Origin: an uncultured virus (IMG/VR IMGVR_UViG_3300042860_000278)
Lineage: Duplodnaviria; Heunggongvirae; Uroviricota; Caudoviricetes
Reading direction: 5' to 3' (one strand)
DNA length: 64,000 nucleotides
IMG/VR virus record: IMGVR_UViG_3300042860_000278
This document shows, one piece after another, positions 36,947-54,662 of this stretch; the first letter of the stretch is position 1, and each line of letters opens with the position of its first letter. The position numbers and the translations under genes were made by a program. Under the pieces are notes generated by a model, which was given only the letters and a program-made list of their open reading frames with translations, ran no database searches and had not been told where the DNA came from.

Positions 36947-36987
36947 TAAATCACGGTCAAGGTGACCGTCAAAACGGAGAATCGGAA

Positions 36988-37149
36988 ATGGAAAAGATGG
37001 ACGCACTGGTGGATTTGGTACGAGCACTGTCAAAGAAGTGCGAGGAACTTGAGCAAGCTCAAAACCGTGTTGAGATGTATAAGCGATGGTACGAGCAAGA
37101 AAAGGAAGAGAAGAAAGAGCTTCGCGAACGTCTCAACCGTCAAGCCTAA
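36988..37149 (+). CDS. Early hypothetical coiled-coil protein (53 aa)
   Basis: GGAGAATCGG RBS before ATG 36988, downstream of the promoter. Confidence 0.65.
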   Translation: MEKMDALVDLVRALSKKCEELEQAQNRVEMYKRWYEQEKEEKKELRERLNRQA

Positions 37150-37158
37150 TCACCAAGC

Positions 37159-37186
37159 GGCGAGGGGGGCGAAAGCCCCCCGAGCC
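37159..37186 (+). promoter_or_regulatory. Intergenic GAAA-tetraloop hairpin, copy 1
   Basis: GGC-GA-GGGGGGC-GAAA-GCCCCCC-GA-GCC, directly before an SD; no U tract. Confidence 0.6.
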
Positions 37187-37198
37187 AAGGAGAGAATC

Positions 37199-37468
37199 AT
37201 GATTCGCCCATTGAATGAAATCGCCCACGATATCCACAGCAACTGGACAGCGTTACGCAACAATCCTAACCATTACGCTGCACCATACCTCCAAGCCATG
37301 TATGCGTTGGAGTCAATCAACGACAACTTTTATGCAGATTCGGGTCGAAGCGTAGTGTTGTACTTCCTTGCCAATGCCAACTCATGGCGCGGCGACACCG
37401 CTCGACGAATAAAGGCTGAACTCAAAGCCATGCTGAAGCCGCAGCAACTCAAACTTAACCTTCAATAA
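37199..37468 (+). CDS. Conserved early phage protein (RPL.EIA..I...W...A.PYL.AM...YFL.NA..WRG)
   Basis: AGGAGAGAATC RBS; recognisable early-gene pattern. Confidence 0.75.
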   Translation: MIRPLNEIAHDIHSNWTALRNNPNHYAAPYLQAMYALESINDNFYADSGRSVVLYFLANANSWRGDTARRIKAELKAMLKPQQLKLNLQ

Positions 37469-37474
37469 CTAACA

Positions 37475-37502
37475 GGCGGAGGGGGCGAAAGCCCCCCGAG
37501 CC
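37475..37502 (+). promoter_or_regulatory. Intergenic GAAA-tetraloop hairpin, copy 2
   Basis: Near-identical to 37159-37186, again directly before an SD. Confidence 0.6.
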
Positions 37503-37514
37503 AGAGGGAATTAA

Positions 37515-37697
37515 ATGCACCCTTTCCACGTTGCTACAGATTTACAGAAGTACGGATTCTGGTACACCTATTGGAGTCTGCGGAACAACAACTGCTACAC
37601 GAGACCACAATCGCTTTGGTTGATTTGGGTAGGACACCAACACAACAAGTATATGGATAAGCGACTCAATAACAGCGTTCGAATTCTTACCAAGTAA
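37515..37697 (+). CDS. Early hypothetical protein (60 aa)
   Basis: GAGGG SD; followed by a terminator. Confidence 0.6.
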   Translation: MHPFHVATDLQKYGFWYTYWSLRNNNCYTRPQSLWLIWVGHQHNKYMDKRLNNSVRILTK

Positions 37698-37711
37698 ACA
37701 ATTTCTCCGTG

Positions 37712-37742
37712 GGGCAGGGACTTCCAACCTGCCCTTTTTCTT
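37712..37742 (+). terminator. Rho-independent terminator
   Basis: GGGCAGG/CCTGCCC stem followed by TTTTTCTT. Confidence 0.7.
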
Positions 37743-37744
37743 CG

Positions 37745-37813
37745 GCCTATTGATGCCAGTTATTAGTTGGCGCGCGCGGGAGGGGGCGCGCGTGGCGCGC
37801 GCGACGCGAACCC
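37745..37813. repeat. Post-terminator CG-rich repeat, copy 1
   Basis: First 34 bp match 38643-38676 at 30 positions; shared GCGTGGCGCGCG further on. Confidence 0.8.
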
Positions 37814-37819
37814 TAATAA

Positions 37820-37832
37820 AATCAATGACTTA
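37820..37832 (+). promoter_or_regulatory. IHF-consensus site
   Basis: AATCAATGACTTA matches WATCAANNNNTTR, with an upstream A-rich tract. Confidence 0.6.
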
Positions 37833-37929
37833 CGATATAGTTCAGACAATTCTACCCCATCATGTATAACGATTCCATGCCACGCCGGGAGGCGCGCACC
37901 ACCAAAACATCATATGAGGATCAGATACT

Positions 37930-38580
37930 ATGGCTCGCAAAGTTAAGAATGCGGTTTCGGCCGCTGTCGCTGGCGCGAATATCGCCAGCATCAAGGATCT
38001 CGGCGTCCAGACGGCTGGACACCGGGCGCGCGGAATCGCCCTCGGGCATGCGGCGCTCAAACTGTGGCCTGCACTCGCGACGGATTTCGCAAAGGGCGAT
38101 AAGGATAATTGGGCGCGATTCGACGACGGTTCCCGCACAGCGTATGACGACACGCATACCGCACCGGTCGCGGTTCGCGACGAAAAAGGTCGCTATACCC
38201 TGATCAACGCCGGGGACGGAGTCGAGGGGCAGCATTTGTCCGCCGCCTATCTCGCCAGCCAGACTCCAGCCGACTGGTCGCGGATCAAGAATGACTCGCC
38301 GACACTCTGGACGGTTATGGATCAGGTTCGGGAGCGGATTGGCAACTACGTCCGCGACAACCGCCGCAATCTCCGGGACAACGTCAATAAGGCGATGGGC
38401 GGAGTCAGCCGCAAGGCGCGAGTCACCAACCGCACCATGCCATCGATCATTGCCGACACGGTTGCGACACTCCGGGCAAAAATCAAACTGGATCTCGGCA
38501 ACAAAGCCATCGATCAGGCGGAGCACGATAAGGTGCTGGCATGGTTGATCGACGGCGAGAAACTCTTCAAGAAAGACTGA
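37930..38580 (+). CDS. Early hypothetical protein (216 aa)
   Basis: GAGGA SD, possible TATAAC -10 at 37865, own terminator; GC-rich codon usage. Confidence 0.75.
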   Translation: MARKVKNAVSAAVAGANIASIKDLGVQTAGHRARGIALGHAALKLWPALATDFAKGDKDNWARFDDGSRTAYDDTHTAPVAVRDEKGRYTLINAGDGVEGQHLSAAYLASQTPADWSRIKNDSPTLWTVMDQVRERIGNYVRDNRRNLRDNVNKAMGGVSRKARVTNRTMPSIIADTVATLRAKIKLDLGNKAIDQAEHDKVLAWLIDGEKLFKKD

Positions 38581-38585
38581 TCCGA

Positions 38586-38640
38586 CCGGGGCGGCAACGC
38601 CCCGGCCTTTCGGGGGAGGCGAAAGCCTCCCCCATTTTTT
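38586..38640 (+). terminator. Tandem GNRA hairpins ending in a rho-independent terminator
   Basis: CCGGGGCG-GCAA-CGCCCCGG, then GGGGGAGGC-GAAA-GCCTCCCCC-ATTTTTT. Confidence 0.85.
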
Positions 38641-38642
38641 GT

Positions 38643-38700
38643 GCCTGTTGATACCAGTTATTTGTTTGCGCGCGCGATGCGTGGCGCGCGACGCCGACCC
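38643..38700. repeat. Post-terminator CG-rich repeat, copy 2
   Basis: See 37745-37813. Confidence 0.8.
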
Positions 38701-38753
38701 GCGCGAGCCGGGCGAGCGGCTCATGGCGCGGCATGGCATGGAATAATTAAGCC

Positions 38754-38769
38754 CGTGGGAATTCCCACG
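38754..38769. promoter_or_regulatory. 16-bp palindrome CGTGGGAATTCCCACG, copy 1 of 3
   Basis: Perfect palindrome, repeated at 39394 and 40247. Confidence 0.75.
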
Positions 38770-38778
38770 CCGCTAAAT

Positions 38779-39310
38779 ATCATTTGCGAAAATTACAGAG
38801 TACGCTTTCGTAGGTGACCCCCCTGCCGCGCTAAACGCATCATTTGCGAAAATTACAAAGTACGCGCTGTTTTGTTCCGCTCGCTACGCTTGTTCCGCAG
38901 CCTGTTCCGGGCGACGCTCGTTTTGCGGAACAACGCAAGTGCTTGATTCTAATCAGGAAAACGCGATTTTTGCGCGATTTGTTCCGCTGTTCCGCAAAAA
39001 ATAAGTAAAGAACTGCCGAGACGCAGTTTTTTCGCTCGCGAGGGTCGCGCAGCCTGTTCGGCAAGTTAGGTGTGTCTGGCAGTTTATACTCTCAAAACTG
39101 CGGAACAGCGGAACAACCCCCCCTTTTTTCTTACTTACTACTACATTTTATTTATATATAAGATAAGAACGACTACGCAAAATCAAGCACTTACGCTCAT
39201 CCGAGCGACGCTCATTTCACAAGTTACGCCCAAAAGCCCGAGCATAATATAAGCGGAACAAACTCGTTTTTCCGGAACAGCGGAACAGACTGATAAATAA
39301 AATAGTTATA
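38779..39310. other. Putative replication origin: TGTTCCG(C/G) iterons, AT-rich core, IHF sites
   Basis: At least 11 iteron copies, mostly in opposite orientations in the two halves; 27-bp direct repeat with 60-bp period; inverted IHF-consensus sites at 38936 and 39181; no credible ORF. Confidence 0.6.
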
Positions 39311-39317
39311 TATAAGC

Positions 39318-39345
39318 TTGAATTAGTATAGTTTTCAGGTAAAAT
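39318..39345 (+). promoter_or_regulatory. Sigma70-type promoter
   Basis: TTGAAT-16 bp-TAAAAT preceded by an AT-rich UP-like tract. Confidence 0.6.
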
Positions 39346-39391
39346 GGGGTCTCGTGTCCGCAGTTCTGTTTGTACATCACCTCAACTTATC

Positions 39392-39411
39392 GGCGTGGGA
39401 ATTCCCACGCC
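39392..39411. promoter_or_regulatory. Palindrome copy 2 (20 bp, GGCGTGGGAATTCCCACGCC)
   Basis: Perfect palindrome just upstream of the RBS of the 39426 gene. Confidence 0.75.
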
Positions 39412-39425
39412 ACGGAGAATCAGAC

Positions 39426-40238
39426 ATGGCAAGCAAATTCAAACTCCTCAACATCGACGCCAACGCCAAAACGGTGAAGGGTCAAGCCCGTGGGTACCTG
39501 ACGGGCATCCTGTACCTCTCTCCGAGCGACGCTAGCGGCACTCAACTCTGCCCCCTATCCCACGTAGCCCGTTGCGCTGCCCCATGCTTGAACCTCGCAG
39601 GGCGTGGCGGCATGGCGAAGGGTAACGCTACCTTCACCTCACCCGGCGGCCACGAACTCTCTGATAACACCGTGCAGCGCGCTCGACTGCGTCGTACAGA
39701 ATTGTTCTTGGAGGACTACGACGCCTTCTTTGCGCTGCTAGTGAAAGAAATACGCATGGCCGAGCGCATGGCACAGGAACAGGGTCTCACCCTTGCCCTC
39801 CGGCTCAACGGCACGAGCGACATTCGGTGGGAGGACATACCTCTGACCGTTGACGGGCGTGGCTACTACAACATTTTCCGTGCCTTCCCACACATTCAGT
39901 TCTACGACTACACCAAGATTCCGAACCGACGCCGTGCGCTCATCATTCCTAACTATCACCTCACATACAGTTACTCGGGTGTATCAGATTTTGCGCCGGT
40001 AGTTATCCAAGCCCTACGTACCTACGGGGAGCGGGTCAACATGGCAGTCGTGTTCCGTGGCGACGTACCCAAGACATTCCTAGGCAGACAGGTCGTCAAC
40101 GGCGACGAATCAGATTTGCGGTTCCTAGACCCCACAGGCGTCGTGATCGCACTGAAGGCAAAGGGGAAAGCCCAGAAGGACACCTCTGGGTTCGTTGTCG
40201 ATCACATCAATAGCCCTGCCCTGTCGGCAGCGGCGTAA
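39426..40238 (+). CDS. GP88-like phage protein (Cys-containing)
   Basis: LCP......C...CL..AGRG, RLNGTSDI.W, QFYDYTK, NYHLT.S and GD..DLRFLD motifs. Start moved to ATG 39426, which has an RBS. Confidence 0.75.
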   Translation: MASKFKLLNIDANAKTVKGQARGYLTGILYLSPSDASGTQLCPLSHVARCAAPCLNLAGRGGMAKGNATFTSPGGHELSDNTVQRARLRRTELFLEDYDAFFALLVKEIRMAERMAQEQGLTLALRLNGTSDIRWEDIPLTVDGRGYYNIFRAFPHIQFYDYTKIPNRRRALIIPNYHLTYSYSGVSDFAPVVIQALRTYGERVNMAVVFRGDVPKTFLGRQVVNGDESDLRFLDPTGVVIALKAKGKAQKDTSGFVVDHINSPALSAAA

Positions 40239-40246
40239 CTAACTAG

Positions 40247-40262
40247 CGTGGGAATTCCCACG
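40247..40262. promoter_or_regulatory. Palindrome copy 3
   Basis: CGTGGGAATTCCCACG abutting the GAGGAG SD of the 40276 gene. Confidence 0.75.
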
Positions 40263-40275
40263 GAGGAGAGTCAGT

Positions 40276-40521
40276 ATGAGTCAGGAAGAGTTTGTTTACG
40301 TGGCGATCTATACGCACAAGCATGGCATCGACTACGCCGTGTACCGCACTGCCGAAAAAGCCTACGAGTGGGGCGAGGACATAGCGCGTACGTACTGGGA
40401 AGACTTTTACCCCGACGACCCCATGCCAGAAGAGAAGGTGATGCAAGCCTACTTCAACAGCGCAAATGCTTGGATTCATGGTGAGTGGTTCACCGTAGAA
40501 CGTAAACAAATCGAGGGCTAA
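40276..40521 (+). CDS. Early hypothetical acidic protein
   Basis: Strong SD; in operon order. Confidence 0.7.
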   Translation: MSQEEFVYVAIYTHKHGIDYAVYRTAEKAYEWGEDIARTYWEDFYPDDPMPEEKVMQAYFNSANAWIHGEWFTVERKQIEG

Positions 40522-40523
40522 AC

Positions 40524-40754
40524 GTGAGCAGCATTAATTCAGTAGGTCGATTGGTCGTGGCCGTGCGTAACGTGTACGGCAACGAGATGGTGTATCCCAT
40601 AAACGACACGGCGAAGTTGTTCGCCAAGATCGCAGGGACGAAGACACTCAAGCCCGAGACTATCTACACAGCGCAGTTGCTTGGGTTCGATGTCGAGCAA
40701 GTGATCGAAGAGACAGCGACGCTCAACTTCACAAGGGGGAAACTCAATGGCTGA
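40524..40754 (+). CDS. Conserved early protein (.NVYG....YP....AK.FA.IAG.KTL family)
   Basis: Recognisable small phage protein pattern; GAGG SD with GTG start. Confidence 0.7.
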   Translation: MSSINSVGRLVVAVRNVYGNEMVYPINDTAKLFAKIAGTKTLKPETIYTAQLLGFDVEQVIEETATLNFTRGKLNG

Positions 40755-41013
40755 TGACGACAATGAAACGCGGGTGAAGATCGACTACATCAGATATCTA
40801 AATCACATACGACATCTGAACAACCACTACGCCGGTATAAGCAACATGCACGGCAGGAGCATCATCAAGCAAGGCATGGCAGAGGGCAAAAAGTTTCAAG
40901 GTAGGCGTGTCGGTCACTTGCTTGATTCAAACCTACGCCCCGAGCGACAGATCGAAGAGCAGAAGTTGCTAGAACAATTCATGCGTGAACACAACATAGG
41001 AACAGAGGAGTAG
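40747..41013 (+). CDS. Hypothetical protein
   Basis: AGGGGG SD; overlaps the previous stop. Confidence 0.6.
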   Translation: MADDDNETRVKIDYIRYLNHIRHLNNHYAGISNMHGRSIIKQGMAEGKKFQGRRVGHLLDSNLRPERQIEEQKLLEQFMREHNIGTEE

Positions 41014-41017
41014 CGCG

Positions 41018-41269
41018 ATGCAAGTATCAGGAGTTGAAGGGTACATATTGAAAGAAGTGTCGCGGGTCGTGAAGTACAAGAAGTACCGCATCGATCTGAC
41101 GTATGACTCGCTAACGTTGCTTGGAAGAATGCGACAGGAGAGGACGATAAAGTTTTTGACCAAGGCAGAGATATCAACGTCACCACTCATGTTTATTAAG
41201 TTTGAAGGGCAACATGCCTTGGAGTTGGCGAAGTCATACATCAATGCATACCAAAAAAGTAAAGGCTAA
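41018..41269 (+). CDS. Hypothetical protein
   Basis: GAGGAG SD. Confidence 0.6.
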   Translation: MQVSGVEGYILKEVSRVVKYKKYRIDLTYDSLTLLGRMRQERTIKFLTKAEISTSPLMFIKFEGQHALELAKSYINAYQKSKG

Positions 41270-41311
41270 CCATGCAAACTGGCCGGTTCAATAATTGTTT
41301 TAAATAAAAGG

Positions 41312-41340
41312 TTGATTCATTCGTCAAGAAAAGTTATGAT
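41312..41340 (+). promoter_or_regulatory. Sigma70-type promoter
   Basis: TTGATT-17 bp-TATGAT with an AT-rich upstream element. Confidence 0.75.
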
Positions 41341-41366
41341 TCTTACCAGATCACAGGAGAATCTGT

Positions 41367-42266
41367 ATGACCATCGAACTTGAAACGCCCAAGCACATTA
41401 CGTCGCTGCGTACCTCTGCGATTCTCGTGGGGGTGGAGATGACAGCGTCGAACTTCACCAAGTCTGACCGTGGCATTGCGTCGCGCATCAGTCAGGAGGC
41501 AAACGCCAAGGCCAACGTCACCAAGGTAGCGCATGAGTTGCTTGCCAATGACCCGGACTTGCGACTGCTACTCAACCACAGGCAGACCGTCTATAACTTC
41601 CTCGACTCATGGACGCTGCCGTGGATGGGCAAACTGCGACTGCTGCCATCGTCGAGCATTGAGAAGTTCCTAGCCAAGTACAACGAACTGGAGCAACAGT
41701 TCTACACATTGCTCGACACGTTCCTCGACAAGTACGAAGACAAGATCGCAGCACAGGCATTCGTGCGCGGTGACTTCTTCAATCGTAATGATTACCCAAC
41801 ACTGGAGCAGGTGCGCGGTGCGTTCACGATCAAGTTGTACCACCAACCCGTGCCAGAGAATGACTTCCGAGTGCAGGTCGCCAACGACCAAGCCGCTGAC
41901 TTGCAGCGCAACTTCCAGAAGCAGGTCAACGACAAGGTGCAGGAGGCACACGCTGCACTGGTGGAGAAGTTCGTCGATGTCATGCAGTCGCTGTCGCACT
42001 GCTGCGATGTCGAGGAGGTCACGGGCAAGGACGGCGAGATCAAGATTCGTCGCCGCAAAATCTACGACTCGACTGTCGAGAAGGCGATGGACTTGTGCGA
42101 AACACTAGAAGCGTTCAACCCAATGGGTGACGAGCGGCTCGACAAGGCTCGTGAAGAACTATTCGATACGTTGCGTACAGTCGATGCCACTACGTTGCGT
42201 GAGTCAGATTCTGCGCGATCCCGTGTCAAGGCAGATGTCGATTCCATATTGTCGAAATTCTGTTAA
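41367..42266 (+). CDS. DUF3150-like helical protein accompanying the AAA+/vWA pair
   Basis: TLPW...RLLP, F...DYP and P.P..DFRV motifs; first gene after the promoter. Confidence 0.6.
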   Translation: MTIELETPKHITSLRTSAILVGVEMTASNFTKSDRGIASRISQEANAKANVTKVAHELLANDPDLRLLLNHRQTVYNFLDSWTLPWMGKLRLLPSSSIEKFLAKYNELEQQFYTLLDTFLDKYEDKIAAQAFVRGDFFNRNDYPTLEQVRGAFTIKLYHQPVPENDFRVQVANDQAADLQRNFQKQVNDKVQEAHAALVEKFVDVMQSLSHCCDVEEVTGKDGEIKIRRRKIYDSTVEKAMDLCETLEAFNPMGDERLDKAREELFDTLRTVDATTLRESDSARSRVKADVDSILSKFC

Positions 42267-42307
42267 TTGGACTTTTTGTACTCATCAGAGAATCAGGAGT
42301 AATAGTT

Positions 42308-43429
42308 ATGACTACTACAAACGTTGACGTTCATTCCCTCCCCGTGTCCCTGTCCGAGGCGTTGCAGATGATCCTGCTGTACGGCAGTGAGATCACCCTG
42401 CTGATGGATGGTGAGACGGGTATCGGCAAGTCGTCCTTGCTACCGGCGATTGCCAAGAAGCACGGCGATCAGTGGCGTAAGCCCGGTCAGTACTTTGCGA
42501 CTGACAAGTACAACTATCTCTACATCGACTGCACCACTGAAGAGATCGGTGATCGCAAGATGAAGATTCCCGTGCATGCCACGAAGAAGTTGGAGGACTA
42601 CCTCGCCGCCGAGTGGCGGCTCGACGAGGGCAAGCCGCTTGTCCTCATGCTTGACGAGTTCAAGAAGTGTCCCAAGGCATTGCAGGTGCTGTGGTCACGG
42701 CTCATGCAGGAGCGCACCATCGGCAACGTGCCGCTGCCCGAGGGGTCAATCGTGTTTGGTACGTCCAACCTTGCGTCAGACGGACTGGGCGACATCATCA
42801 AGGCACACGAGGCTAACCGTGTGATGCGTGTCCATGTACGCAAGTCGAACTCAAAAGAGATGTACAAGTACGCTGCCGAGCAGGGCGTCGAGCAAGTGTT
42901 GCTTGCGTGGATCGCCTCGACCAAGCAAGCGTTCGCGTCGTACCTCGACGGCAACCAAGACAGCAACCCTTACATCTTCCATCCTAATCGTTCTGGTCAA
43001 TGCGTTACGCCGCGCTCCACCATGCGTTGCAATTACGTGCTACAGAAGCGACACCTTGTGCCGGAGCACATCACGCACACGGCACTGGCCGGACTGATTG
43101 GTCGTGCAGGTGCGGACAGCCTCATGGCCTGTGTCAACCTCGACGACAAGGTGATGAAGACCGAGCAGGTGATCAAGGCTCCGACTGCTGTACCTGTTCC
43201 AGATGATGCGCTTGCTTTGATCCTGATGATGATTCACGGCGCGGCCGACGTTGAGACACAGGACGAGGTCGATGCGTTCATGCAGTTCGTGGATCGTGTG
43301 CCGTCGAGCGAGGTGCAGTCGATCTTCTTCCACATGCTTGTGACTTCCAACAATCCACAGAAGGTCATCTTGGTTCGCAACAACAAGCGATTGACCCAGT
43401 GGCGTACTGACAACTACGAGTTGATCTAA
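42308..43429 (+). CDS. MoxR-like AAA+ ATPase
   Basis: Walker A GETGIGKS, Walker B LMLDE, sensor N, NR arginine finger, TPRS. Confidence 0.85.
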   Translation: MTTTNVDVHSLPVSLSEALQMILLYGSEITLLMDGETGIGKSSLLPAIAKKHGDQWRKPGQYFATDKYNYLYIDCTTEEIGDRKMKIPVHATKKLEDYLAAEWRLDEGKPLVLMLDEFKKCPKALQVLWSRLMQERTIGNVPLPEGSIVFGTSNLASDGLGDIIKAHEANRVMRVHVRKSNSKEMYKYAAEQGVEQVLLAWIASTKQAFASYLDGNQDSNPYIFHPNRSGQCVTPRSTMRCNYVLQKRHLVPEHITHTALAGLIGRAGADSLMACVNLDDKVMKTEQVIKAPTAVPVPDDALALILMMIHGAADVETQDEVDAFMQFVDRVPSSEVQSIFFHMLVTSNNPQKVILVRNNKRLTQWRTDNYELI

Positions 43430-43442
43430 TAGGAGTATTCAC

Positions 43443-44672
43443 ATGGATACAGCAATGAAGATCAAGAAGGCCAAGAGCCGCTTGATGCGACACGTTGAGA
43501 CCCGGCACATGGCGGGTATCTTTGTGAGTGGCAAGGTCGAGATATGCGACAACCTTCCTACCGCATGCACTGATGGGTGGAACGAGAAGTATGGTCGCAA
43601 GTTCACTGACGGGCTGACCATTGCAGAGGCCACGGGTGTGGTACTGCACGAGGGACTGCACAAGTATGCGAAGCACATCCCTCGCTTCCGTAAGTTGATG
43701 AAGACTGACGGACGCATGATCAATGCAGCGATGGACTACGCGATCAACGACATCATTCATAACTTGAAAGACAAGACGTTGGCCGTGCTGCCCGAGCCGC
43801 ATCTGTACAACCCCATGTTCAGGAATTGGTCTGTCCTTGAGATATACGAGTTCTTGAAGACAGGTCGAGACAAGGACGGCAACAAGCGTGGCGATCCCAA
43901 AGAGAACCGTGATGGTGTCAACGTTGGCGGTAGTCAGTACGACACCGAGTCGATGGATGAGCACAGCGCGGAGAGCATCACGGGCGAGGAACTCAGCGAA
44001 GCAGAGGCAGAGCAGATCGCCAAGAAGATCGACGATGCGATCAAGCAGGGCGCGATCATTGCCGGTGCGATGGGGCTTGACCTGCCCCGTGCGTTGACTG
44101 AATCGTTAGACCCGGTGGTCGATTGGACTGCGGAGTTGTATGACTTTGCTAGCAACAACGTGCGCGGTGCTGACGAGTACAGTTTCCAACGATACAACCG
44201 ACGCCGGATCGCTGACGATATCTACATGCCGACGATGTACAAGGACACCATCAGCGAAGTGTTGATCATGCCGGATGCGTCCGGATCGATTGACCAACGT
44301 GCGATGAATGCGTGGGCAGCGGAGATCGCCAACGTGTGCGAGGTGATGCAGCCTGATCTGGTGCGTGTGTTGTGGTGGGACACGCAGGTGCATGCCGAGC
44401 AGGTGTTTGAGCCGGGTCAGTTCGATCAGATTCGTGACCTGCTCACGCCCCGTGGCGGTGGTGGTACGGAGGTCTCGTGCCTCAGTCGCTACATCAATGA
44501 TAAGAATATTACGGCAGACTGTGCCATCGTGTTGACGGACGGTTACGTCGAGCCTCAAGTGAAGTGGGACATCGACATCCCGACGCTGTGGATGGTGACG
44601 GAGAGTCGTATGTTTCGTCCCCCGGTGGGACGCATGGTGAAGATCGATAACCTTGGAAAGGAGAATCAGTGA
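43443..44672 (+). CDS. Metallopeptidase-like (HExxH) plus vWA domain protein (DUF2201-like)
   Basis: TA.TDG, LHEGLH, N.AMD..IN; MIDAS-type DASGS, GGGGT and LTDG. Confidence 0.85.
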   Translation: MDTAMKIKKAKSRLMRHVETRHMAGIFVSGKVEICDNLPTACTDGWNEKYGRKFTDGLTIAEATGVVLHEGLHKYAKHIPRFRKLMKTDGRMINAAMDYAINDIIHNLKDKTLAVLPEPHLYNPMFRNWSVLEIYEFLKTGRDKDGNKRGDPKENRDGVNVGGSQYDTESMDEHSAESITGEELSEAEAEQIAKKIDDAIKQGAIIAGAMGLDLPRALTESLDPVVDWTAELYDFASNNVRGADEYSFQRYNRRRIADDIYMPTMYKDTISEVLIMPDASGSIDQRAMNAWAAEIANVCEVMQPDLVRVLWWDTQVHAEQVFEPGQFDQIRDLLTPRGGGGTEVSCLSRYINDKNITADCAIVLTDGYVEPQVKWDIDIPTLWMVTESRMFRPPVGRMVKIDNLGKENQ

Positions 44673-44929: not shown

Positions 44930-44940
44930 GGAGAATCAGT

Positions 44941-45972: not shown

Positions 45973-45976
45973 CACT

Positions 45977-46491: not shown

Positions 46492-47669
46492 ATAAATCTA
46501 TACAAGACATCTTCAAAGAATCATTGGAGATGTTGGATCAGGACAAGTTCGACGAGTGCATACCGGGGTTCACGAAACTCATCGACATGCATCCGTTGAT
46601 CATTGCGTCCTACATTCAGCGTGGCCGAGCGCACTGGGAGATGAAGCGTTGGGACTTGGCACAGGCAGACTTTGAGAAGGCTCTGCACCACGATCCTGAC
46701 ACCGCTGATGCCAAGTGGACGATGGGTCTGATGGCGATGCAGCGCGGTGAATTCAAGCGTGGGTGGGAGTTGTATGACGAGCGTTGGAACAGTACGTCGT
46801 TTGCATCCCCGCGACTCAAGACGAGGCTCCCCGAGTGGCGACCATACCGTGCCTATCAGTCTGTACTTGTATGGTGTGAGCAGGGCATCGGTGATCAGTT
46901 GCTGTACAGCAGTCTGCTGAAGAAGGTTAAGAGTTGTACTAAGAAAGTTACAGTAATGATCGACGTTCGTTTGATGGGATTACTGCAACGAGCCAACCCA
47001 GACATCAAGTTCATTCCGCATAGCGCCAGAGTTAACAACGCTGAGTATGATTCTCAGATAGCACTGGGCAGCATCGGCAGACCTTTCATTGAGACAGAAG
47101 CCGACATCGACGAGTGCACCCAGTTCAAGTACATCAGACACGACACGAATCGTGGTGTGCAAATACAGCAAGAGTTGGGTCTGACCGGAGAAGAGTTCGT
47201 CATCGGTCTCTCATGGGCTAGTACTGCACCTCGCATCGACAAGCACAAGAGCATCAAGTTAGAAGAACTGATCGGGCTGTGGGATATCCCGAACGCCAAG
47301 ATCGTCAGTCTCCAATACGGCAAACCCGAGCACGAAATAGAACTATTTGAAGAGAAGACTCACCAACAAGTCTGGCAGACCACCGTGAGCAACTTCTTTG
47401 ATCTAGAGGGTGTAGCCGCCACGATGTCGCTGTGCGATGTGGTGGTGTCGGTTAGTAATGCCAACGTGCATATCGCAGGGGCGATGGGCAAACCTACGTA
47501 TGTGCTCGACGCTAACAAACTTTGGTACTGGAACCAGAAGCGTGGCCGCACGAGTCTGTGGTATCCATCGGTAAAACTATTTCCACGCGACAACGTAAAG
47601 GCTCCGTGGGACAAACAAGTTCAAGAACTAATTCAGGAGATTCAAGATGACTACTTCCCTAACTCTTGA
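46488..47669 (+). CDS. TPR-repeat plus GT-B (family 9-like) glycosyltransferase-like protein
   Basis: N-terminal TPR helices, GW.LY..RW, EQGIGD.L, IG.SW, SLQYG, D.VVS..N..VH.AGA.GKP and WYPSV.LF. Confidence 0.8.
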   Translation: MNKSIQDIFKESLEMLDQDKFDECIPGFTKLIDMHPLIIASYIQRGRAHWEMKRWDLAQADFEKALHHDPDTADAKWTMGLMAMQRGEFKRGWELYDERWNSTSFASPRLKTRLPEWRPYRAYQSVLVWCEQGIGDQLLYSSLLKKVKSCTKKVTVMIDVRLMGLLQRANPDIKFIPHSARVNNAEYDSQIALGSIGRPFIETEADIDECTQFKYIRHDTNRGVQIQQELGLTGEEFVIGLSWASTAPRIDKHKSIKLEELIGLWDIPNAKIVSLQYGKPEHEIELFEEKTHQQVWQTTVSNFFDLEGVAATMSLCDVVVSVSNANVHIAGAMGKPTYVLDANKLWYWNQKRGRTSLWYPSVKLFPRDNVKAPWDKQVQELIQEIQDDYFPNS

Positions 47670-47913
47670 TGACGATGTGTCCTATCTGGATGTTAAGCCA
47701 GAGGACATGGTTCCGATCCCGCCGCAGGAAAAAGTCTGGGCAACGATTGGTGACAATCTTCAGTTGGAGTACATCGACTGGGACATGATTGAAAACCTCG
47801 CTCATCAGTTTGATCTATTGCATAAGGCAGGAGAACAGAAGACTGAGAGCCATGTGATCTGCAAGTTACTAGTGTTGGTGCGGGACAAGACGAAGAAGGA
47901 GTGCGGTGCGTGA
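47647..47913 (+). CDS. Hypothetical protein
   Basis: AGGAG SD; coupled to the next gene. Confidence 0.6.
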   Translation: MTTSLTLDDDVSYLDVKPEDMVPIPPQEKVWATIGDNLQLEYIDWDMIENLAHQFDLLHKAGEQKTESHVICKLLVLVRDKTKKECGA

Positions 47914-48581: not shown

Positions 48582-48582
48582 G

Positions 48583-49005: not shown

Positions 49006-49036
49006 ACTGGAGATACTGCGTGGAAATCGAAGATGA
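48794..49036 (+). CDS. Hypothetical protein
   Basis: GAGGGA SD; coiled-coil end; overlaps the next start. Confidence 0.55.
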   Translation: MTTELKPKVETLVIDDQSPPGAWKDEMSAAPWGYGQSQQMRVERSLQNIRRAGLFDEATVLLLELNTLKTELEILRGNRR

Positions 49037-49217
49037 TATTCTTGATCTGATTCGCGCACTCCCCAACGACATCAATGATGCCTCGACCACAACAGAAATG
49101 AAGTTTCTGACAGTGGGCAGCGTGTTGTGGGCGTGTCGTGATGAGATCGTCTACTTACGCAGAGAAGTTGAGAGGTTGAAAAGTGAGCGTCGTAAAGCAA
49201 GAAAGAAGGTGTACTGA
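49020..49217 (+). CDS. Hypothetical protein
   Basis: GGAG SD with GTG start; DEI..LR.E.ERL coiled-coil motif. Confidence 0.55.
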   Translation: MEIEDDILDLIRALPNDINDASTTTEMKFLTVGSVLWACRDEIVYLRREVERLKSERRKARKKVY

Positions 49218-49377
49218 GTGCAAGCGCAAGTTTGCAACGGCGAACTCATTTCACGCGCACAAATACAGATTTGGTGATTGCCGCTCTCTTGAAGCGATGG
49301 CGGCAATCGGATTCGTAGAAACCGCGAAGGGATGGAAGTTAATTGACCCCCGAACGAAAAGTAAAAGACAAGGTTAG
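49183..49377 (+). CDS. Small Zn-finger protein
   Basis: CTEC...F.....F..H......C pattern. Confidence 0.6.
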   Translation: MSVVKQERRCTECKRKFATANSFHAHKYRFGDCRSLEAMAAIGFVETAKGWKLIDPRTKSKRQG

Positions 49378-49651
49378 AAAAGTTCTAACCGAGATCAAGG
49401 CTTACTACGCGATGCCCATCGGCACAGGTTATGGCAACGCCGGAGTGCCAGACTTCCTAGTCTGCTACAAGGGGTTGTTCATAGGCATCGAATGCAAGGC
49501 CAAGGGGAACAAACCGACTGCCTTACAGATGAAAAACTTTAAAGACATTGAAGAGGCAGGAGGACAAGTGCTGTTGATTGATGAGTCTAATGTTGATCAG
49601 TTGTTGCAATTAATATTGATAGGAGTCAGTTCGTATGAAAAAGCAGAGTAA
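49343..49651 (+). CDS. VRR-NUC domain nuclease
   Basis: TPE.KVK, G.G..GVPD, IECKA, PT.LQ and AGG motifs. Confidence 0.88.
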   Translation: MTPERKVKDKVRKVLTEIKAYYAMPIGTGYGNAGVPDFLVCYKGLFIGIECKAKGNKPTALQMKNFKDIEEAGGQVLLIDESNVDQLLQLILIGVSSYEKAE

Positions 49652-50096
49652 TGCTGCGAAGATTCGCGCTCTCTTGGCAGAGGGGCTGTCAGTAAAAGAG
49701 ATCGCCGCCAAGTTGAAACTCAAAGAGAACTACGTTCATCAAGTAAAGTTCTATTGGAAGAACAATATCAAGAAGGGTGAGCGAGTTAAGAAAACCAAGT
49801 TGTCGAAGATCGCAAAGACCCGCGAAGTATTGCAGCCGGTAAAGCCGTTGATCTTCAACGGGCAGAAGCCGATAAAAGTTCCCGAGGCCGATATGGTCAA
49901 TCACCCACCGCACTACAAGGTTGGCGGCGTGGAAACGATTGAGTTCATAGAGGCTAAGAATCTTAACTATCACTTGGGCAACGCTGTGAAGTACATCAGC
50001 CGCGCTTTCTACAAGGGCAATCCGTTGCAGGACTTGAAGAAGGCTAGGTTCTACATTGATCGCGAGATCGCCCGTCGAGAATCGAAGGCTGCTTGA
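49635..50096 (+). CDS. HTH-like N-terminus plus DUF3310 (T7 gp1.7/SaV-like) domain
   Basis: D.VNHP.HY..GG.E.I, LGNA.KY..R..K and DL.KA.FY motifs. Confidence 0.8.
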   Translation: MKKQSNAAKIRALLAEGLSVKEIAAKLKLKENYVHQVKFYWKNNIKKGERVKKTKLSKIAKTREVLQPVKPLIFNGQKPIKVPEADMVNHPPHYKVGGVETIEFIEAKNLNYHLGNAVKYISRAFYKGNPLQDLKKARFYIDREIARRESKAA

Positions 50097-50098
50097 TC

Positions 50099-51967
50099 AT
50101 GAGTTTCGTAACGCTAGATTTTGAAACGTACTATGCGAAGGACTTCAGTCTGTCGAAGATGACGACTGAGGAATACATTCGCGACCCGCGCTTTCAAATC
50201 ATCGGCGTAGGTGTCAAAGAGAACGATGGCGAACCCGTTTGGTTTTCTGGATCTCACGATGAGATTAAAGAATTCTTAAACAGGTTTGACTGGAGCAGCA
50301 CCGCTGTCCTATGTCACAACGCCATGTTCGACGGAGCGATACTGGAGTGGGTTCTGGATATTCATCCGAACTTCTACTACGACACGCTGTGCATGGCTCG
50401 TGCTTTACACGGGGTCGATGCAGGTGGATCGCTTGCTGCGCTTGTTCAGCGTTACGAGATTGGTGAGAAGGGAACCGAAGTACACAACAACATCGGGAAA
50501 CGGAGAGAGGACTTCTCTCCGGCAGAACTGGAGTTGTATGGGCACTATTGCATGAACGACGTTGAACTAACGTGCAATTTGTTTGCTCGTATGGCTCCAG
50601 TTTTTCCCGAGGTCGAGTTCAATCTGGTGGACATGACCCTCAAGATGTACACCCGTCCGACGCTGATGGTGGACGATGCGCTGTTGGTCACGAGGCTAGA
50701 TGAAATTAAAGCCGAGAAGACTGAACTGCTAAATGGTCTGAGAGGTTTGCTTGACTGTGGGCTAGAGGAAGAAGTTCGCAAGAAACTCTGTAGCAACAAA
50801 CAGTTCGCGCAGATACTGGAGGACTTCAACATCCCCGTGCCCATGAAGATCAGTCCGACTACGGGCAACCCGACCTTTGCTCTTGCCAAGAATGATGTGG
50901 GGTTCATGGCTCTGCAAGAACATCCCGACCCGATCATTCAACAACTCTGCGCGGTTCGTCTGGGTACGAAGTCCACCATCGAAGAGTCACGCATCGAACG
51001 CTTCATCGGAATCGGTGCGCGAAACAATGGCATGCTGCCTATCCCGTTGAAGTATTACGGGGCACACACTGGGCGGTGGTCAGGGCAGGACAGCGTCAAC
51101 TTCCAGAACTTGCCGAGCCGCGATGCCAAGAAGAAGGCGTTGAAGAATTCAGTGCTGGCTCCCCGTGGACATGTCGTTATTAACTGTGACAGTTCACAGA
51201 TCGAAGCGCGTGTGCTGGCGTGGTTAGCCGAGCAGGAGGACATGGTCGAGGCGTTCCGTAACAAGCGGGATATCTATTCCGAGTTCGCCACGCAGGTCTA
51301 CAACAGAACTATTACGAAGAAAGATCCGGTCGAGCGGTTCGTGGGCAAGACCTGCATCCTTGGACTGGGCTACGGCACAGGTGCTGCCAAGTTGCAGCAC
51401 ACTCTGGGCACGGCGCATCCGGTGAGCGTTCGCCTTGAAGAACATGAGTGCAAGCGCATCGTGCATCTGTACCGACAGGCCAACAGCATGATCCCGAGGT
51501 TTTGGAATGACTGTGACCGAGCCTTGTCATGGCTGATGAGCACGGGTGCGAACGTTGGTAAGTCTTACTACTTGGACAACAAGCAAGTCGTGGAGATAAC
51601 GCCGGAAGGCATAAGGCTTCCGAACCGACTGTACATCCGCTATCCGAACCTCCGCACTAGCGGCCTTGAAAACGGATGCGTTTACACATCACGCCGTGGC
51701 GTAATAAAGATCTGGGGCGGTGCAGTTACTGAGAATATCGTGCAAGCCCTCGCCCGAATCATCGTGGGCGAACAGATGCTAAAGATAAACGAACGTTATC
51801 GAACTGTACTGACCGTGCATGACGCAGGTGTCTGGGTTGTCCCAGAATCCGAAGTCGATGACGCCCTTGCATTTATAGTGAAAACTATGTCTACTCCCCC
51901 TGACTGGTGTGCCGATCTGCCCGTCGCTTGCGAGGCTAAATACGGACAATCATATGGGGATTGCTAG
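50099..51967 (+). CDS. DNA polymerase, family A, with 3'-5' exonuclease
   Basis: Exo motifs DFET, HNAMFD and YC..D; TGRWS, motif A DSSQIEAR, motif B R...K...LG..YG, motif C VHD. Confidence 0.95.
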   Translation: MSFVTLDFETYYAKDFSLSKMTTEEYIRDPRFQIIGVGVKENDGEPVWFSGSHDEIKEFLNRFDWSSTAVLCHNAMFDGAILEWVLDIHPNFYYDTLCMARALHGVDAGGSLAALVQRYEIGEKGTEVHNNIGKRREDFSPAELELYGHYCMNDVELTCNLFARMAPVFPEVEFNLVDMTLKMYTRPTLMVDDALLVTRLDEIKAEKTELLNGLRGLLDCGLEEEVRKKLCSNKQFAQILEDFNIPVPMKISPTTGNPTFALAKNDVGFMALQEHPDPIIQQLCAVRLGTKSTIEESRIERFIGIGARNNGMLPIPLKYYGAHTGRWSGQDSVNFQNLPSRDAKKKALKNSVLAPRGHVVINCDSSQIEARVLAWLAEQEDMVEAFRNKRDIYSEFATQVYNRTITKKDPVERFVGKTCILGLGYGTGAAKLQHTLGTAHPVSVRLEEHECKRIVHLYRQANSMIPRFWNDCDRALSWLMSTGANVGKSYYLDNKQVVEITPEGIRLPNRLYIRYPNLRTSGLENGCVYTSRRGVIKIWGGAVTENIVQALARIIVGEQMLKINERYRTVLTVHDAGVWVVPESEVDDALAFIVKTMSTPPDWCADLPVACEAKYGQSYGDC

Positions 51968-52626
51968 TGATCAAATGGTCGTACAGCGGACTGAAGGACT
52001 TCACCAAATGTCCGCGCCAGTATCATGAAGTAAAGGTTTTACAGAACTTCAAGAAGGAAGTAACGGAGCAGATGCGTTACGGAACTGAGGTTCACCAAGC
52101 ATTAGAGGACTACGTCAGAAACGGTATACCACTGAATAGAAATTATGAACGCTTTCAACCTCTGCTGGATGTGCTTATGCGGATGCCGGGGACACGATTC
52201 CCTGAGCACAAGATGGCATTGACAATCGATAAGCAGCCGTGTGGTTTTGACGATGCAGATTACTGGGTGCGCGGTATTGCTGACTTGTTAATCATAGACG
52301 GAGACCATGCTTTCGTTATTGATTACAAGACTGGCAAGCCGAAGATGCCTGACCCCGACCAGTTAAAGTTGATGGCGTTGATGGTGTTCGCGCACTTTCC
52401 TTCAGTGAAGAAGATCAAAGCTGCGCTTGCATTCATACTTTATGATGTTTTTATTCCAGAGGAATACGAACGTAATCAAGTTGATTCGATCTGGGATGTG
52501 TTCAATCCGGATCTTATGAGGTTGAGTCTCGCTTACGAGAACAACACTTGGATGCCAAACCCCACTCCGCTTTGTGGTTGGTGTCCTGTAGATACTTGTG
52601 AATTCTACAAGCGGAGGAGGAACTGA
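51961..52626 (+). CDS. PD-(D/E)XK RecB/Cas4-like exonuclease
   Basis: WSYS....F..CP, G.EVH..LE, RG.AD, DYKTGK, QL..MA and C.WCP...C motifs. Confidence 0.88.
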   Translation: MLVIKWSYSGLKDFTKCPRQYHEVKVLQNFKKEVTEQMRYGTEVHQALEDYVRNGIPLNRNYERFQPLLDVLMRMPGTRFPEHKMALTIDKQPCGFDDADYWVRGIADLLIIDGDHAFVIDYKTGKPKMPDPDQLKLMALMVFAHFPSVKKIKAALAFILYDVFIPEEYERNQVDSIWDVFNPDLMRLSLAYENNTWMPNPTPLCGWCPVDTCEFYKRRRN

Positions 52627-52627
52627 G

Positions 52628-52909
52628 ATGGCTTACGTAAACAAACCCCGCCCGTACAAGAAAGAGTATCAGCAACAGAAAGCCCGTAAGGAACATGCAG
52701 ATCGCATGGAGCGTCAACGTGCGCGCCGCGCTGTTGATAAGAACGGTAAAGATTTAAATGGTAACGGAAAAGCAGATCGACGCGAGGGCAAGGACATTGC
52801 CCACAAGAAAGCGTTATCGAAAGGTGGAACCAACAAAGACGGTTACACCATCCAGTCAATTCGTCGCAACCGCTCTTTCAAACGTACCTCAAGCGGAGCG
52901 ATGAAGTAG
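52628..52909 (+). CDS. Small basic HNH-like protein
   Basis: GGAGG SD; R.YK.EY N-terminus and a degenerate HNH pattern GKDI.H...LS.GG.N.........NRS. Confidence 0.65.
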   Translation: MAYVNKPRPYKKEYQQQKARKEHADRMERQRARRAVDKNGKDLNGNGKADRREGKDIAHKKALSKGGTNKDGYTIQSIRRNRSFKRTSSGAMK

Positions 52910-53065
52910 TCCCCACAAGGTATGAGTGTGGAGGACAGGGCAGTTCCCACCCACTTCTGCCCTAGCGTAGTCATAAGCGCTCAACCATGCCATTCAAGGC
53001 AGCGGCTATCTAACTGATTCTCACCGCTGTGACTTGAACGACTGGCCCCCGTAAGGGGCTTCTTC
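52909..53065 (+). ncRNA. Putative structured small RNA (4-5 hairpins) with an anti-RBS loop
   Basis: Stems at 52909-52936, 52937-52963, 52964-52981 (weak), 52993-53038 and 53045-53059 followed by TTCTT. G-U pairs favour the plus strand. Loop 53013-53022 is the reverse complement of GAGAATCAGT. Confidence 0.7.
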
Positions 53066-53075
53066 AAGAGGAATT

Positions 53076-54662
53076 ATGGAAGTCATAGAGAACACGGCGC
53101 TACGCCTAACCGTGCCGAATCAAGTTGCTCAGAACATCCTGAGTAAAGTTGAAAAGAGCGAGTTGATCATCGACTGCGGAACAGCCAAAGACATTGCTGT
53201 CTACTGGGGTTTCGATGAAGCATCGTTGCTAACTTATCTACTCGACGGTGAACTTCCGAAGGAAGGCACACCTATCATCCCGTCGCCAATACTCAGAGAT
53301 TACAACTGGCCGGGCGTCTTCAAACCATTTGATCACCAGAAGAGTACTGCATCATTCCTAAGTCTGAGGCAGAGAGCGTTCTGCTTTAACGAAGCCGGGA
53401 CAGGCAAGACCTCTGCTGCGATATGGGCAGCGGACTACCTGATGACACTAGGCTTGGTAAAAAGAGTTCTAGTGATCTGCCCGTTGTCGATCATGCACTC
53501 AGCATGGCAAGCAGACATCTTCAAGACCGCGATGCATCGTTCATGCGGCGTGGCATATGGCGATGGTGCGAAGCGGAAACAAATTATCAACAACCCTTAC
53601 GACTTCATCGTTATTAATTATGACGGAGTTGCAATCGTCAGGGATGAGATTCGTAACGGTGGATTCGATCTGATCATCGTTGATGAGGCGAATGCATACA
53701 AGACACCGACGACGAAACGATGGAAGACGTTAGCGTCAATCATTACATCTGATACACGCCTGTGGATGATGACCGGCACACCTGCCTCGCAGTCTCCGGT
53801 GGATGCCTATGGCCTTGCGAAGTTGATCTCACCGTACCGTGTACCGAAGTTCATGAGTGCGTGGCGGGATAAAGTTATGCGCCAAGTCTCACGATTCAAG
53901 TGGATGCCCAAACCAGATTCGCAACACGAAGTGCGTTACGCGCTACAACCTGCGATCCGGTATACCAAGAAAGAATGCTTGGATCTACCAGAGGTGACGT
54001 ATCAAACCCGTGAAGTACCGCTCACGGTGCAAGTCGCAAGATACTATAAAACCCTTAAAAATCAGATGTTAATCGAAGCTGCTGGGCAAATGGTGTCAGC
54101 AGTCAACGCTGCGGCAAGCATGAGCAAGTTGCTGCAAATCTCAGGCGGCGCGGTCTACACCGATCACCGCGATGTGGTCGAGTTTGATGTGTCTCCACGC
54201 CTTGAAGCGATGCGCGAAGTGCTTGACGAAACGTCAAACAAAGTTGTAATATTCGTACCGTACATACACACGATTGATGTTGTCACTGAATATCTGAACC
54301 GCGAGGGCTACACTAACGAAGTGATCAAAGGCGATGTGCCACCCAAGACACGCGCCGATATCATCGACAGGTTCCAGTCTCAAGAAAATCCGCGAGTGCT
54401 TGTGATTCAACCGCAAGCAGCATCTCACGGTGTGACTTTGACCGCCGCTGATACGATCATCTTCTGGTCGCCTGTGATGAGCGTTGAGACTTATCTTCAG
54501 TGTATCGGTCGTATTGATAGAGTTGGACAGCGTAATCCGTGTACGGTCGTTCATCTTCAGGGTTCTGATGCTGAGCGTCGCGTGTACAACATGTTGCAAG
54601 GTAAAGTTGATTCGCATCAAAAACTAGTTGATCTGTATAAGCAGGAGTTGGAATCAGTATGA
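53076..54662 (+). CDS. SNF2-family helicase
   Basis: NEAGTGKT, VICP, IVDEA, MTGTP and Q...RI.R.GQ motifs. Confidence 0.92.
   Translation: MEVIENTALRLTVPNQVAQNILSKVEKSELIIDCGTAKDIAVYWGFDEASLLTYLLDGELPKEGTPIIPSPILRDYNWPGVFKPFDHQKSTASFLSLRQRAFCFNEAGTGKTSAAIWAADYLMTLGLVKRVLVICPLSIMHSAWQADIFKTAMHRSCGVAYGDGAKRKQIINNPYDFIVINYDGVAIVRDEIRNGGFDLIIVDEANAYKTPTTKRWKTLASIITSDTRLWMMTGTPASQSPVDAYGLAKLISPYRVPKFMSAWRDKVMRQVSRFKWMPKPDSQHEVRYALQPAIRYTKKECLDLPEVTYQTREVPLTVQVARYYKTLKNQMLIEAAGQMVSAVNAAASMSKLLQISGGAVYTDHRDVVEFDVSPRLEAMREVLDETSNKVVIFVPYIHTIDVVTEYLNREGYTNEVIKGDVPPKTRADIIDRFQSQENPRVLVIQPQAASHGVTLTAADTIIFWSPVMSVETYLQCIGRIDRVGQRNPCTVVHLQGSDAERRVYNMLQGKVDSHQKLVDLYKQELESV

Follow-up and report, generated by a model that had tools for sequence, protein, structure and literature searches.

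Which factor reads a sequence that a set of early phage genes share at their ribosome-binding sites (RBSs)? The question is raised by a stretch of 64,000 nucleotides from an uncultured freshwater phage (IMG/VR record IMGVR_UViG_3300042860_000278, Caudoviricetes; hereafter, the window), in which early genes on the plus strand carry an RBS that is conserved beyond the Shine-Dalgarno (SD) core into the spacer, here called the tag. Comparative sequence analysis suggests that the tag is probably read by a phage-encoded antisense RNA, located at 52908-53060 directly upstream of a helicase gene, which would repress the early regulon in trans.

The early tag and its antisense in a structured RNA

The motif GGAGAATCAGT is present in two exact copies (44660 and 44930); copies with one mismatch lie at 39414, 40265, and 41356 on the plus strand, and a single one lies on the minus strand, at 53023. 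With up to two mismatches, 23 matches were counted window-wide on both strands. On a hand-curated list of gene starts, at most one mismatch was found at 5 of 14 plus-strand starts below 45 kb, at none of 20 plus-strand starts between 45.9 and 59.1 kb, and at none of 42 minus-strand late starts. When two mismatches were allowed, the counts were 7/14, 0/20, and 1/42 (the late one before 28053), and when three were allowed, 8/14, 3/20, and 3/42. The motif is thus early-specific. The p-values from Fisher's test of plus-strand against late starts (0.007-0.019) are optimistic because the motif was derived from the same sites. Nineteen of the 42 late starts fall in the part of the window supported by the records G107 and G109 (see below), and one of these is within two mismatches; in the late arm of G109 itself, none of 22 starts is. 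About a dozen early and middle genes had been annotated as sharing the motif; the motif is real and its early placement (37-45 kb) holds, but good sites number seven to nine, and the middle starts at 47647, 49635, and 54659 match only in part. Exact copies of the 16-mer GAGGAGAATCAGTATG were located in 13 stretches of IMG/VR, 3 with genes of this phage and 10 without any query gene.

The minus-strand copy at 53023 means that the plus strand bears ACTGATTCTC in the gap between a 93-aa gene and the helicase gene. The reverse complement of this seed is identical to the tag core, GAGAATCAGT. When nine seed bases were required to pair, with one G-U at most, eight places were found on the two strands of the window (∼3 random ones expected by simple arithmetic), namely the early starts at 36977, 37916, 39415, 40266, 42288, 44661, and 44931, and the RNA gene itself. 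The seed was picked with the motif known; its position in the loop was set independently, by structure. The best predicted target was GAGGATCAGA at 37916, which counts as a good site only with G-U pairing allowed, and which precedes the gene of a 216-aa protein for which no family was matched. A genome-wide duplex scan in which the guide included the stem arms returned noise and was superseded by the loop-only and seed tests.

The seed is part of an RNA whose structure (hairpins P1 to P4 and a pseudoknot; Table 1) is established by covariation. In 34 sequences, the same from which the structure had been derived, 96.8% of cells were paired over 13 counted pairs, 11 of which change on both sides; none of 500 shuffles scored as high, and slid controls dropped to 26-37% paired. 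In 34 of 36 lineages, a stable hairpin lies no farther than 40 nt from P3. P4 of the window has no U tract and was not scored as a terminator in the terminator scan.

Relatives of the phage were gathered via their ATPase, terminase, and helicase, and the RNA was found in 32 of the 34 that were fetched. A pattern scan of IMG/VR matched at least 120 stretches; 73 of the 79 matches analyzed lie directly before a helicase gene, 2 break off behind the 93-aa gene, and the remaining 4 belong to other phages. With a looser pattern, 28 of 80 helicase loci matched, one by chance, and a covariance model detected the RNA in 3 of 30 further records, the other 27 being mostly more distant relatives. In RNA-less relatives (L214, L227, L232, L235, L238, L241, and L312), a promoter-like TTGAC...TA was often still discernible by eye before the helicase gene. 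Neither the RNA of the window nor those of nine bacterial loci (see below) matched Rfam, and, to our knowledge, the pseudoknot fits no described ribozyme or riboswitch. A search of the literature outside subscription papers retrieved no description of the RNA or of an antisense reader of RBS tags, and six supplementary files of Fremin 2023 (PMC10690425) held no match for the RNA; the supplements of Fremin 2023 or Weinberg 2017 may still contain the scaffold as a candidate without annotation. As far as Rfam and this search reach, the RNA appears to be a new family and a new variant of phage antisense control.

Lineage-private tags and their co-change with the loop

The tag differs even between phages whose terminases are ∼80-90% identical. 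Relatives carry other words in the same arm, such as GAGGAGGACAAGGC (L095/L098), CGAGGTAGC (L119/L120), GGAGAAGCAA together with GGAGAAAGCA (L067), or GGAGAAGTGA (L320), and orthologous core genes, long conserved ones included, bear the word of their own genome. CGAGGTAGC, the usual tag of the L120/L293 lineage, lacks GGA. Neither a fixed host reader (CsrA or the 16S rRNA tail) nor a RegB-like site agrees with a tag that changes from lineage to lineage and that can do without GGA. Of the post-transcriptional regulon that the initial annotation had proposed, the early-gene regulon is supported, but the proposed readers are not.

That the motif extends pairing to the tail of the host 16S rRNA, or provides an optimal spacer for strong early translation, would suit its location in the RBS of genes needing fast expression. 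However, the canonical tail (that of the host may differ) would call for GTG after GGAG, not AAT, and late and replication genes lack within-genome sharing of spacers (see below). Largely refuted by the lineage specificity of the tags, this explanation is highly improbable.

Alternatively, a protein could read the tag, be it a phage translational repressor, an SD-cleaving RegB-like nuclease, or host CsrA, with the RNA loop being irrelevant or a decoy. Targets of CsrA/RsmA contain repeated ANGGA sites in the leader that are conserved across lineages, whereas here one ANGGA is present within 44 nt upstream in 5 of 12 leaders and none in the other 7. T4 RegB inactivates early mRNAs at an 11-nt site starting with GGAG (PMC3014915, PMC1702504), and two sites of the window are within two mismatches of its consensus, GGAGRAYARAA; these sites and the ANGGA in 5 leaders favor a protein. 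All 12 sites checked deviate from the RegB consensus by 2-5 mismatches. The window also encodes a DUF3310 protein, whose family has been guessed to act on the genes with a start-associated sequence (SAS) in phage Adephagia (PMC11373665), and most early proteins lack a family. On the other hand, the tags shift between close lineages, one of them lacking GGA, and a decoy would bear the sense, not the antisense, sequence. No match to the RegB, RegA, or CsrA families was obtained with 77 proteins against PHROGs and 30 against Pfam, a comparison that did not include a structure search for a remote RelE-like fold. We therefore regard a protein as an improbable reader in place of the RNA; a phage RNA-binding protein may act beside it.

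Sharing of the spacer was quantified for 409 early starts from 33 RNA-bearing lineages. The within-genome excess over the between-genome value was 0.28 of 6 nt (reached in 0 of 500 label shuffles), of which letter content accounts for 0.08. The excess was 0.00 for both replication genes (414 starts in 36 lineages) and late ones (152 starts in 11 genomes). Repeated start motifs of their own are also present in more distant, RNA-less relatives (L025, L034, L041, L020, and L013), for example, AACYAAACGAGGATACA in L025; another reader or pure homogenization may act in these phages. The junction GGAGGTGTGAG-ATG recurs across many lineages (e.g., L076, L105, L110, and L118), unlike the private tags.

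Examples of loop and tag changing together are the L293 loop (ATCTCGCTACCTCG vs AGGAGGTAGCGAG), the L313 loop (vs CCGGAGAAGTC), the L320 loop (vs AGGAGAAGTG), and the L289 loop (TTGCTTTTCC vs GGAGAAGCAA, with one G-U). The loop of L209, the closest helicase relative, retains TGATTCTCA; the L209 record is only 4.5 kb long, its predicted tag ends in CAA, and a metagenome scan for its loop returned no match. To score co-change, every loop was paired with the starts of every genome (mean of the five best duplex energies, double-centred). In a matrix of 22 lineages, the cognate value was reached by 0 of 100,000 permutations, and the window ranked 1 of 22. The corresponding number was 369 of 100,000 (p ∼0.004; 1,317 with the best three energies) for 14 held-out lineages and 0 for all 36, and z was −4.8 without the window, which establishes co-change across lineages. 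The cognate fit resides in starts located over 8 kb upstream of the RNA (32 lineages, z −5.6), those within 8 kb, the replication part, giving z −0.8. Controls were much weaker or reversed: z was −1.7 for internal SD-like sites, −1.0 after shuffling of the flanks, −0.6 for the P2 region, and +1.6 for the reversed loop. The 22-lineage matrix left out L306 (<12 starts) and redundant cluster members, and the held-out matrix L447 (redundant), L454 (10 starts), and L458 and L459 (other phages); the L448 loop was mis-parsed in the held-out and distance matrices and correct in the pair test and the P2 and reversed-loop controls.

Predicted action of the RNA and its alternatives

We infer that the RNA is expressed and released, that it acts in trans, that it represses rather than activates, and that it times the switch from early to middle expression. 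No promoter consensus was found in the window between 46.3 and 54.2 kb, so that the RNA would be transcribed along with the replication genes by read-through and released by processing or by weak termination at P4. In one clade on the tree, comprising 7 of 36 lineages, a sigma-70-type consensus lies 13-50 nt before the conserved loop, and the RNA may have its own promoter. The conserved pseudoknot and long stem would present the variable loop, and 9-10 nt of this loop would pair with early mRNAs at their SD and spacer. Bacterial small RNAs pairing over SD and spacer normally block loading of the 30S subunit, which is why repression of early translation is predicted here. The b′ loop of the phage RNA c4 blocks 30S loading in this way, by pairing with the RBS (PMC5320573). 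Early translation would thereby be ended or damped once the replication genes are on, and the helicase operon downstream would escape. Indeed, the helicase start is a poor partner of the loop: its relative rank has a median of 0.88, only 2 of 33 lineages place it near the top, and in the window it comes 18th of 21 starts. This low rank excludes a cis lock of the loop on the helicase RBS.

The information could also flow in the reverse direction: as the leader of the helicase-SSB-primase operon, the RNA would sense early mRNAs, the binding of which to the loop would refold the leader and alter read-through into, or translation of, the replication genes. Its location directly before the helicase gene in 73 of 79 matches, the promoter consensus before the conserved loop in one clade, as expected of a 5′ leader, and the proximity of P4 to the helicase RBS are consistent with such a role. 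However, the loop is unpaired with the helicase RBS, which leaves no obvious off state to relieve, and a sensor would not require many tagged genes. Moreover, one relative (L211) has a gene inserted between RNA and helicase, and the scaffold is also found away from helicases, in other phages and bacterial records. A sensing leader is thus unlikely, if less so than the protein or rRNA readers.

Several observations weigh against repression in trans by the antisense RNA. With no promoter consensus between 46.3 and 54.2 kb of the window and a P4 without U tract, it is unexplained how a free RNA would be released. A 3-bp mini-stem is predicted to take up three bases of the seed, and the mismatch of the tag at 41356 sits within the seed and weakens pairing. 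A plain anti-SD word is present in 31 of 36 loops, so part of the pairing is generic. Among independent lineage pairs on a PolA/exonuclease tree (built without reference phages), 11 of 16 agreed with the expectation (p 0.105 by the sign test and 0.0065 by the Wilcoxon test). The cognate genome was among the top three for only 12 of 30 loops; L297, L309, L298, L449, and L455 showed no cognate advantage, and a first held-out set (8 loci, middle genes only) was not significant (p 0.12-0.15). The duplex energies do not account for opening costs, and the gene starts were called heuristically. The early spacers of 15 genomes in which no RNA was found still show an excess of 0.10, compared with 0.06 from letter content, and near-identical spacer pairs stood at 3.2% vs 1.4% in genomes in which no RNA was found. 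Finally, two unrelated phages possess the same scaffold with a loop lacking a clear match to their own starts, which suggests that the scaffold may serve other targets.

The homogenized spacers of RNA-less genomes, although weaker, and the anti-SD words in most loops would also be expected if the tags were by-products of recombination or gene conversion among RBS junctions of the variable early arm, with the loop being a generic anti-SD and the extra match a passenger. Similarity also reaches 5′ of the SD (excess 0.14), and the early arm bears other repeats. Yet conversion of direct repeats does not easily account for inverted copies that occupy the same loop position across many lineages, the signal was lost in the shuffled-flank and internal-site controls, anti-SD makes up little of the window loop, whose pairing is mainly to the spacer, and long conserved core genes share the lineage tag. 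As a full explanation, conversion is quite unlikely, between the leader and the protein readers; as the route by which new tags spread along the arm, it may well be compatible with antisense repression.

Should the antisense RNA act as proposed, one RNA addressing the whole early class via a lineage RBS tag would constitute a new timing of the lytic cycle, and the tag would perhaps let a phage tell kin from non-kin. For every phage antisense RNA covered in a review (PMC12197685), the target is a single phage gene or operon, or host genes; class-wide early shut-off is known from proteins, both there and in T4. The loops and tags also form natural cognate and non-cognate pairs, and the scaffold could serve for programmable translational repressors.

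Table 1. Tag sites and elements of the RNA locus in the window, in order of position
Feature	Position	Strand	Evidence or remark
Tag GGAGAATCGGA before 53-aa first early gene (ATG 36988)	36976..36986	+	9-bp helix with RNA loop
Partial tag GGAGAGAATC before 89-aa gene (ATG 37199)	37189..37198	+	8-bp helix with RNA loop
Tag variant GAGGATCAGA before 216-aa gene (ATG 37930)	37916..37925	+	10-bp helix, one G-U, −18.3 kcal/mol
Tag GGAGAATCAGA before GP88-family gene (ATG 39426)	39414..39424	+	Motif match, loop pairing
Tag GGAGAGTCAGT before 81-aa gene (ATG 40276)	40265..40275	+	10-bp helix
Tag GGAGAATCTGT before 299-aa DUF3150-like gene (ATG 41367)	41356..41366	+	7-bp helix, −11.1 kcal/mol
Tag AGAGAATCAGG, 5′ of and overlapping the SD, AAA ATPase gene (ATG 42308)	42287..42297	+	9-bp helix
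Exact tag before 85-aa gene (ATG 44672)	44660..44670	+	Motif match, loop pairing
Exact tag before 343-aa gene (ATG 44941)	44930..44940	+	Motif match, loop pairing
Weak match GGAGATTCAAG (ATG 47647), probably non-target	47636..47646	+	3 mismatches
Partial match GGAGTCAGT before DUF3310 gene (ATG 49635), possible weak target	49622..49630	+	10-bp helix only with wobbles, −12.3 kcal/mol
Conserved 93-aa gene (phrog_4590, no known family), precedes RNA	52628..52909	+	Upstream of RNA in 71/79 pattern matches
Structured non-coding RNA, ∼150 nt, candidate antisense regulator	52908..53060	+	Fold z −2.7, single copy
P1 hairpin, conserved loop AGGYRYGAG	52909..52936	+	Stem of at least 4 bp in 34/36 lineages
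Pseudoknot 5′ strand GGTATG	52919..52924	+	95% of cells paired; both-side changes at 4/6 pairs
Variable P2 hairpins (control)	52937..52981	+	No match to cognate starts, z −0.6
Conserved AAC and pseudoknot 3′ strand CATGCC (52986-52991)	52983..52991	+	Pairs with P1 loop
P3 long stem-loop, displays guide	52993..53038	+	Both-side changes at 7/7 outer pairs; 98% of cells paired
Seed ACTGATTCTC, exact reverse complement of GAGAATCAGT, in P3 loop (53006-53023)	53013..53022	+	8/11 positions predicted unpaired
P4 hairpin GCCCCCGTAAGGGGC, perhaps a processing boundary or a weak terminator	53045..53059	+	Close to helicase RBS
SNF2-type helicase, directly downstream of RNA	53076..54662	+	RBS pairs poorly with loop, rank 18/21
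Partial match GGAATCAGT (ATG 54659), possible weak target	54650..54658	+	9-bp helix, −12.6 kcal/mol

Related systems and genome context

The SAS of cluster K mycobacteriophages, the function of which is open (PMC3203893, PMC11373665), resembles the tag in being an asymmetric repeat on an AGGAG core, conserved beyond the SD and placed just before ATG, in its restriction to non-structural genes, and in having a single reverse-orientation copy away from starts, as at 53023 on the minus strand here; one such copy is present in each of four K1 phages (PMC3203893). Unlike the tag, the SAS is a 13-bp word (GGGATAGGAGCCC) in 11-19 near-identical copies kept across subclusters, whereas the window has another word at 7-9 looser, lineage-specific sites. 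About half of the SAS are preceded by an extended SAS (ESAS) of spaced 17-bp inverted repeats. Here, an unspaced palindrome, CGTGGGAATTCCCACG, occurs in three copies (38754-38770, 39394-39410, and 40246-40262), two of which directly precede tags (39394, 40247), the third being tagless (38754); it could be an operator or an RNA hairpin.

Between 30 and 59.6 kb of Adephagia, 15 forward and 1 reverse SAS were counted. Between genes 92 and 93, a long hairpin displays the reverse copy as its 10-nt loop (L482:28600-28780; in this one phage), and the intergenic region is strongly folded (z −6.7). The covariance model of the RNA had no match in this stretch, and the scaffolds differ. No antisense reader of the SAS is proposed in the accessible parts of PMC3203893 or PMC11373665; with the reverse SAS in a hairpin loop, the question, open since 2011, becomes testable in a culturable phage.

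The c4 RNA of P1 and P7, a trans-acting phage RNA, likewise has a conserved scaffold and variable loops complementary to RBS regions (PMC5320573, PMC12197685), and in both systems loop and target differ together between related phages, here more weakly on independent pairs. However, the C4 covariance model of Rfam had no match, and the RNA of the window has a pseudoknot scaffold with one guide loop and at least seven dispersed early genes as predicted targets, whereas c4, processed from a precursor by RNase P, targets an antirepressor operon and maintains lysogeny. Integrase, repressor, and antirepressor families were not matched among 77 proteins of the window, most predicted targets have no assigned function, and PADLOC returned nothing for 10 proteins. 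With RegB and RegA of T4, the proposed system would share class-wide early silencing via sequence 3′ of GGAG (PMC3014915); there, protein readers act on a conserved site, while here, the reader is a predicted RNA and the site is lineage-private.

The scaffold extends beyond this phage family. It is present on the chromosome of Methylophilales HTCC2181 and on a contig of another bacterial metagenome-assembled genome (MAG), in both cases with anti-SD-like loops and no phage genes nearby, and in a phage fragment within a Rhodocyclaceae MAG. Among 121 genomes of the family of HTCC2181, 3 gave a match (one weak, one with two copies), as did 2 of 141 genomes of its order, HTCC2181 included. These bacterial copies hint at betaproteobacterial-type hosts. 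In the bacterial records L492 (4992-5095), L497 (4992-5107), L504, and L506, which have anti-SD-like loops and no phage genes close by, a hairpin follows the RNA, and G234 has two identical copies at contig ends. The two unrelated phages mentioned above (L324/L388 from G065 and L340/L353 from G066) have the same pseudoknot, a short P3, and a CCTCGGAAAGACG hairpin. In G065, the starts share a repeated motif of their own, GCGAATTTACAAGGAAA, and a Betaproteobacteria-1 RNA lies close to the scaffold; the Rfam match to the latter in L388 does not identify the scaffold, being a separate RNA ∼750 nt away and seen in 1 of 24 records.

It is conceivable, if doubtful, that these elements represent a re-programmable one-to-many RNA repressor, in which a pseudoknot scaffold with an exchangeable guide loop co-evolves with a private RBS barcode on early genes. 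Such a repressor would be a protein-free early-to-middle switch, orthogonal to host translation, and would double as self-recognition against superinfecting kin of the same barcode; the bacterial copies may be captured versions, and the same logic, with an unrelated scaffold, might apply to the cluster K SAS.

Megablast of the window found no cultured relative; the closest cultured terminases are those of DSL-LC04, HTVC027P, and HTVC023P (48-54% identity). HTVC023P-type podoviruses, which with DSL-LC04 are distant relatives, share the core genes PolA, helicase, terminase, and GroES (PMC9599517), and the main text of that paper, as far as accessible, does not mention small RNA, noncoding, ribosome binding, or Shine. 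The minus-strand late arm of the window contains the genes for terminase, portal, GroES, and capsid. The plus-strand arm starts at 36.9 kb with small unknown genes and those for GP88, the DUF3150-like protein, the AAA ATPase, and a metallopeptidase-vWA protein, followed by PolA, exonuclease, helicase, and primase.

Positions 1 to ∼25,800 belong to a sister phage, which makes the window chimeric. G107 and G109 cover 25807-64000 at 100% identity; beyond 64000, G109 leads into another late arm, which is only 70-83% like the window at 8.9-25.6 kb. The primase and the large LPD38 genes are duplicated in the window, the copies being 44% and 28% identical at the protein level. The findings on tag and RNA are unaffected because both sit on one independent record (L002/G107).

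Further repeats were noted in the early arm. Three similar G/C hairpins with a GAAA loop lie between early genes (37161-37181, 37477-37497, and 38611-38631); the last has a U tail and is terminator-like, and the other two precede RBSs and may be processing sites. A 65-nt imperfect repeat stands on either side of the 216-aa gene (37728-37792 and 38626-38690). The region 38770-39290 is gene-free, with direct and inverted repeats of GCGGAACA flanking an AT-rich centre and an additional 27-nt direct repeat, and looks like a replication origin or genome-end region.

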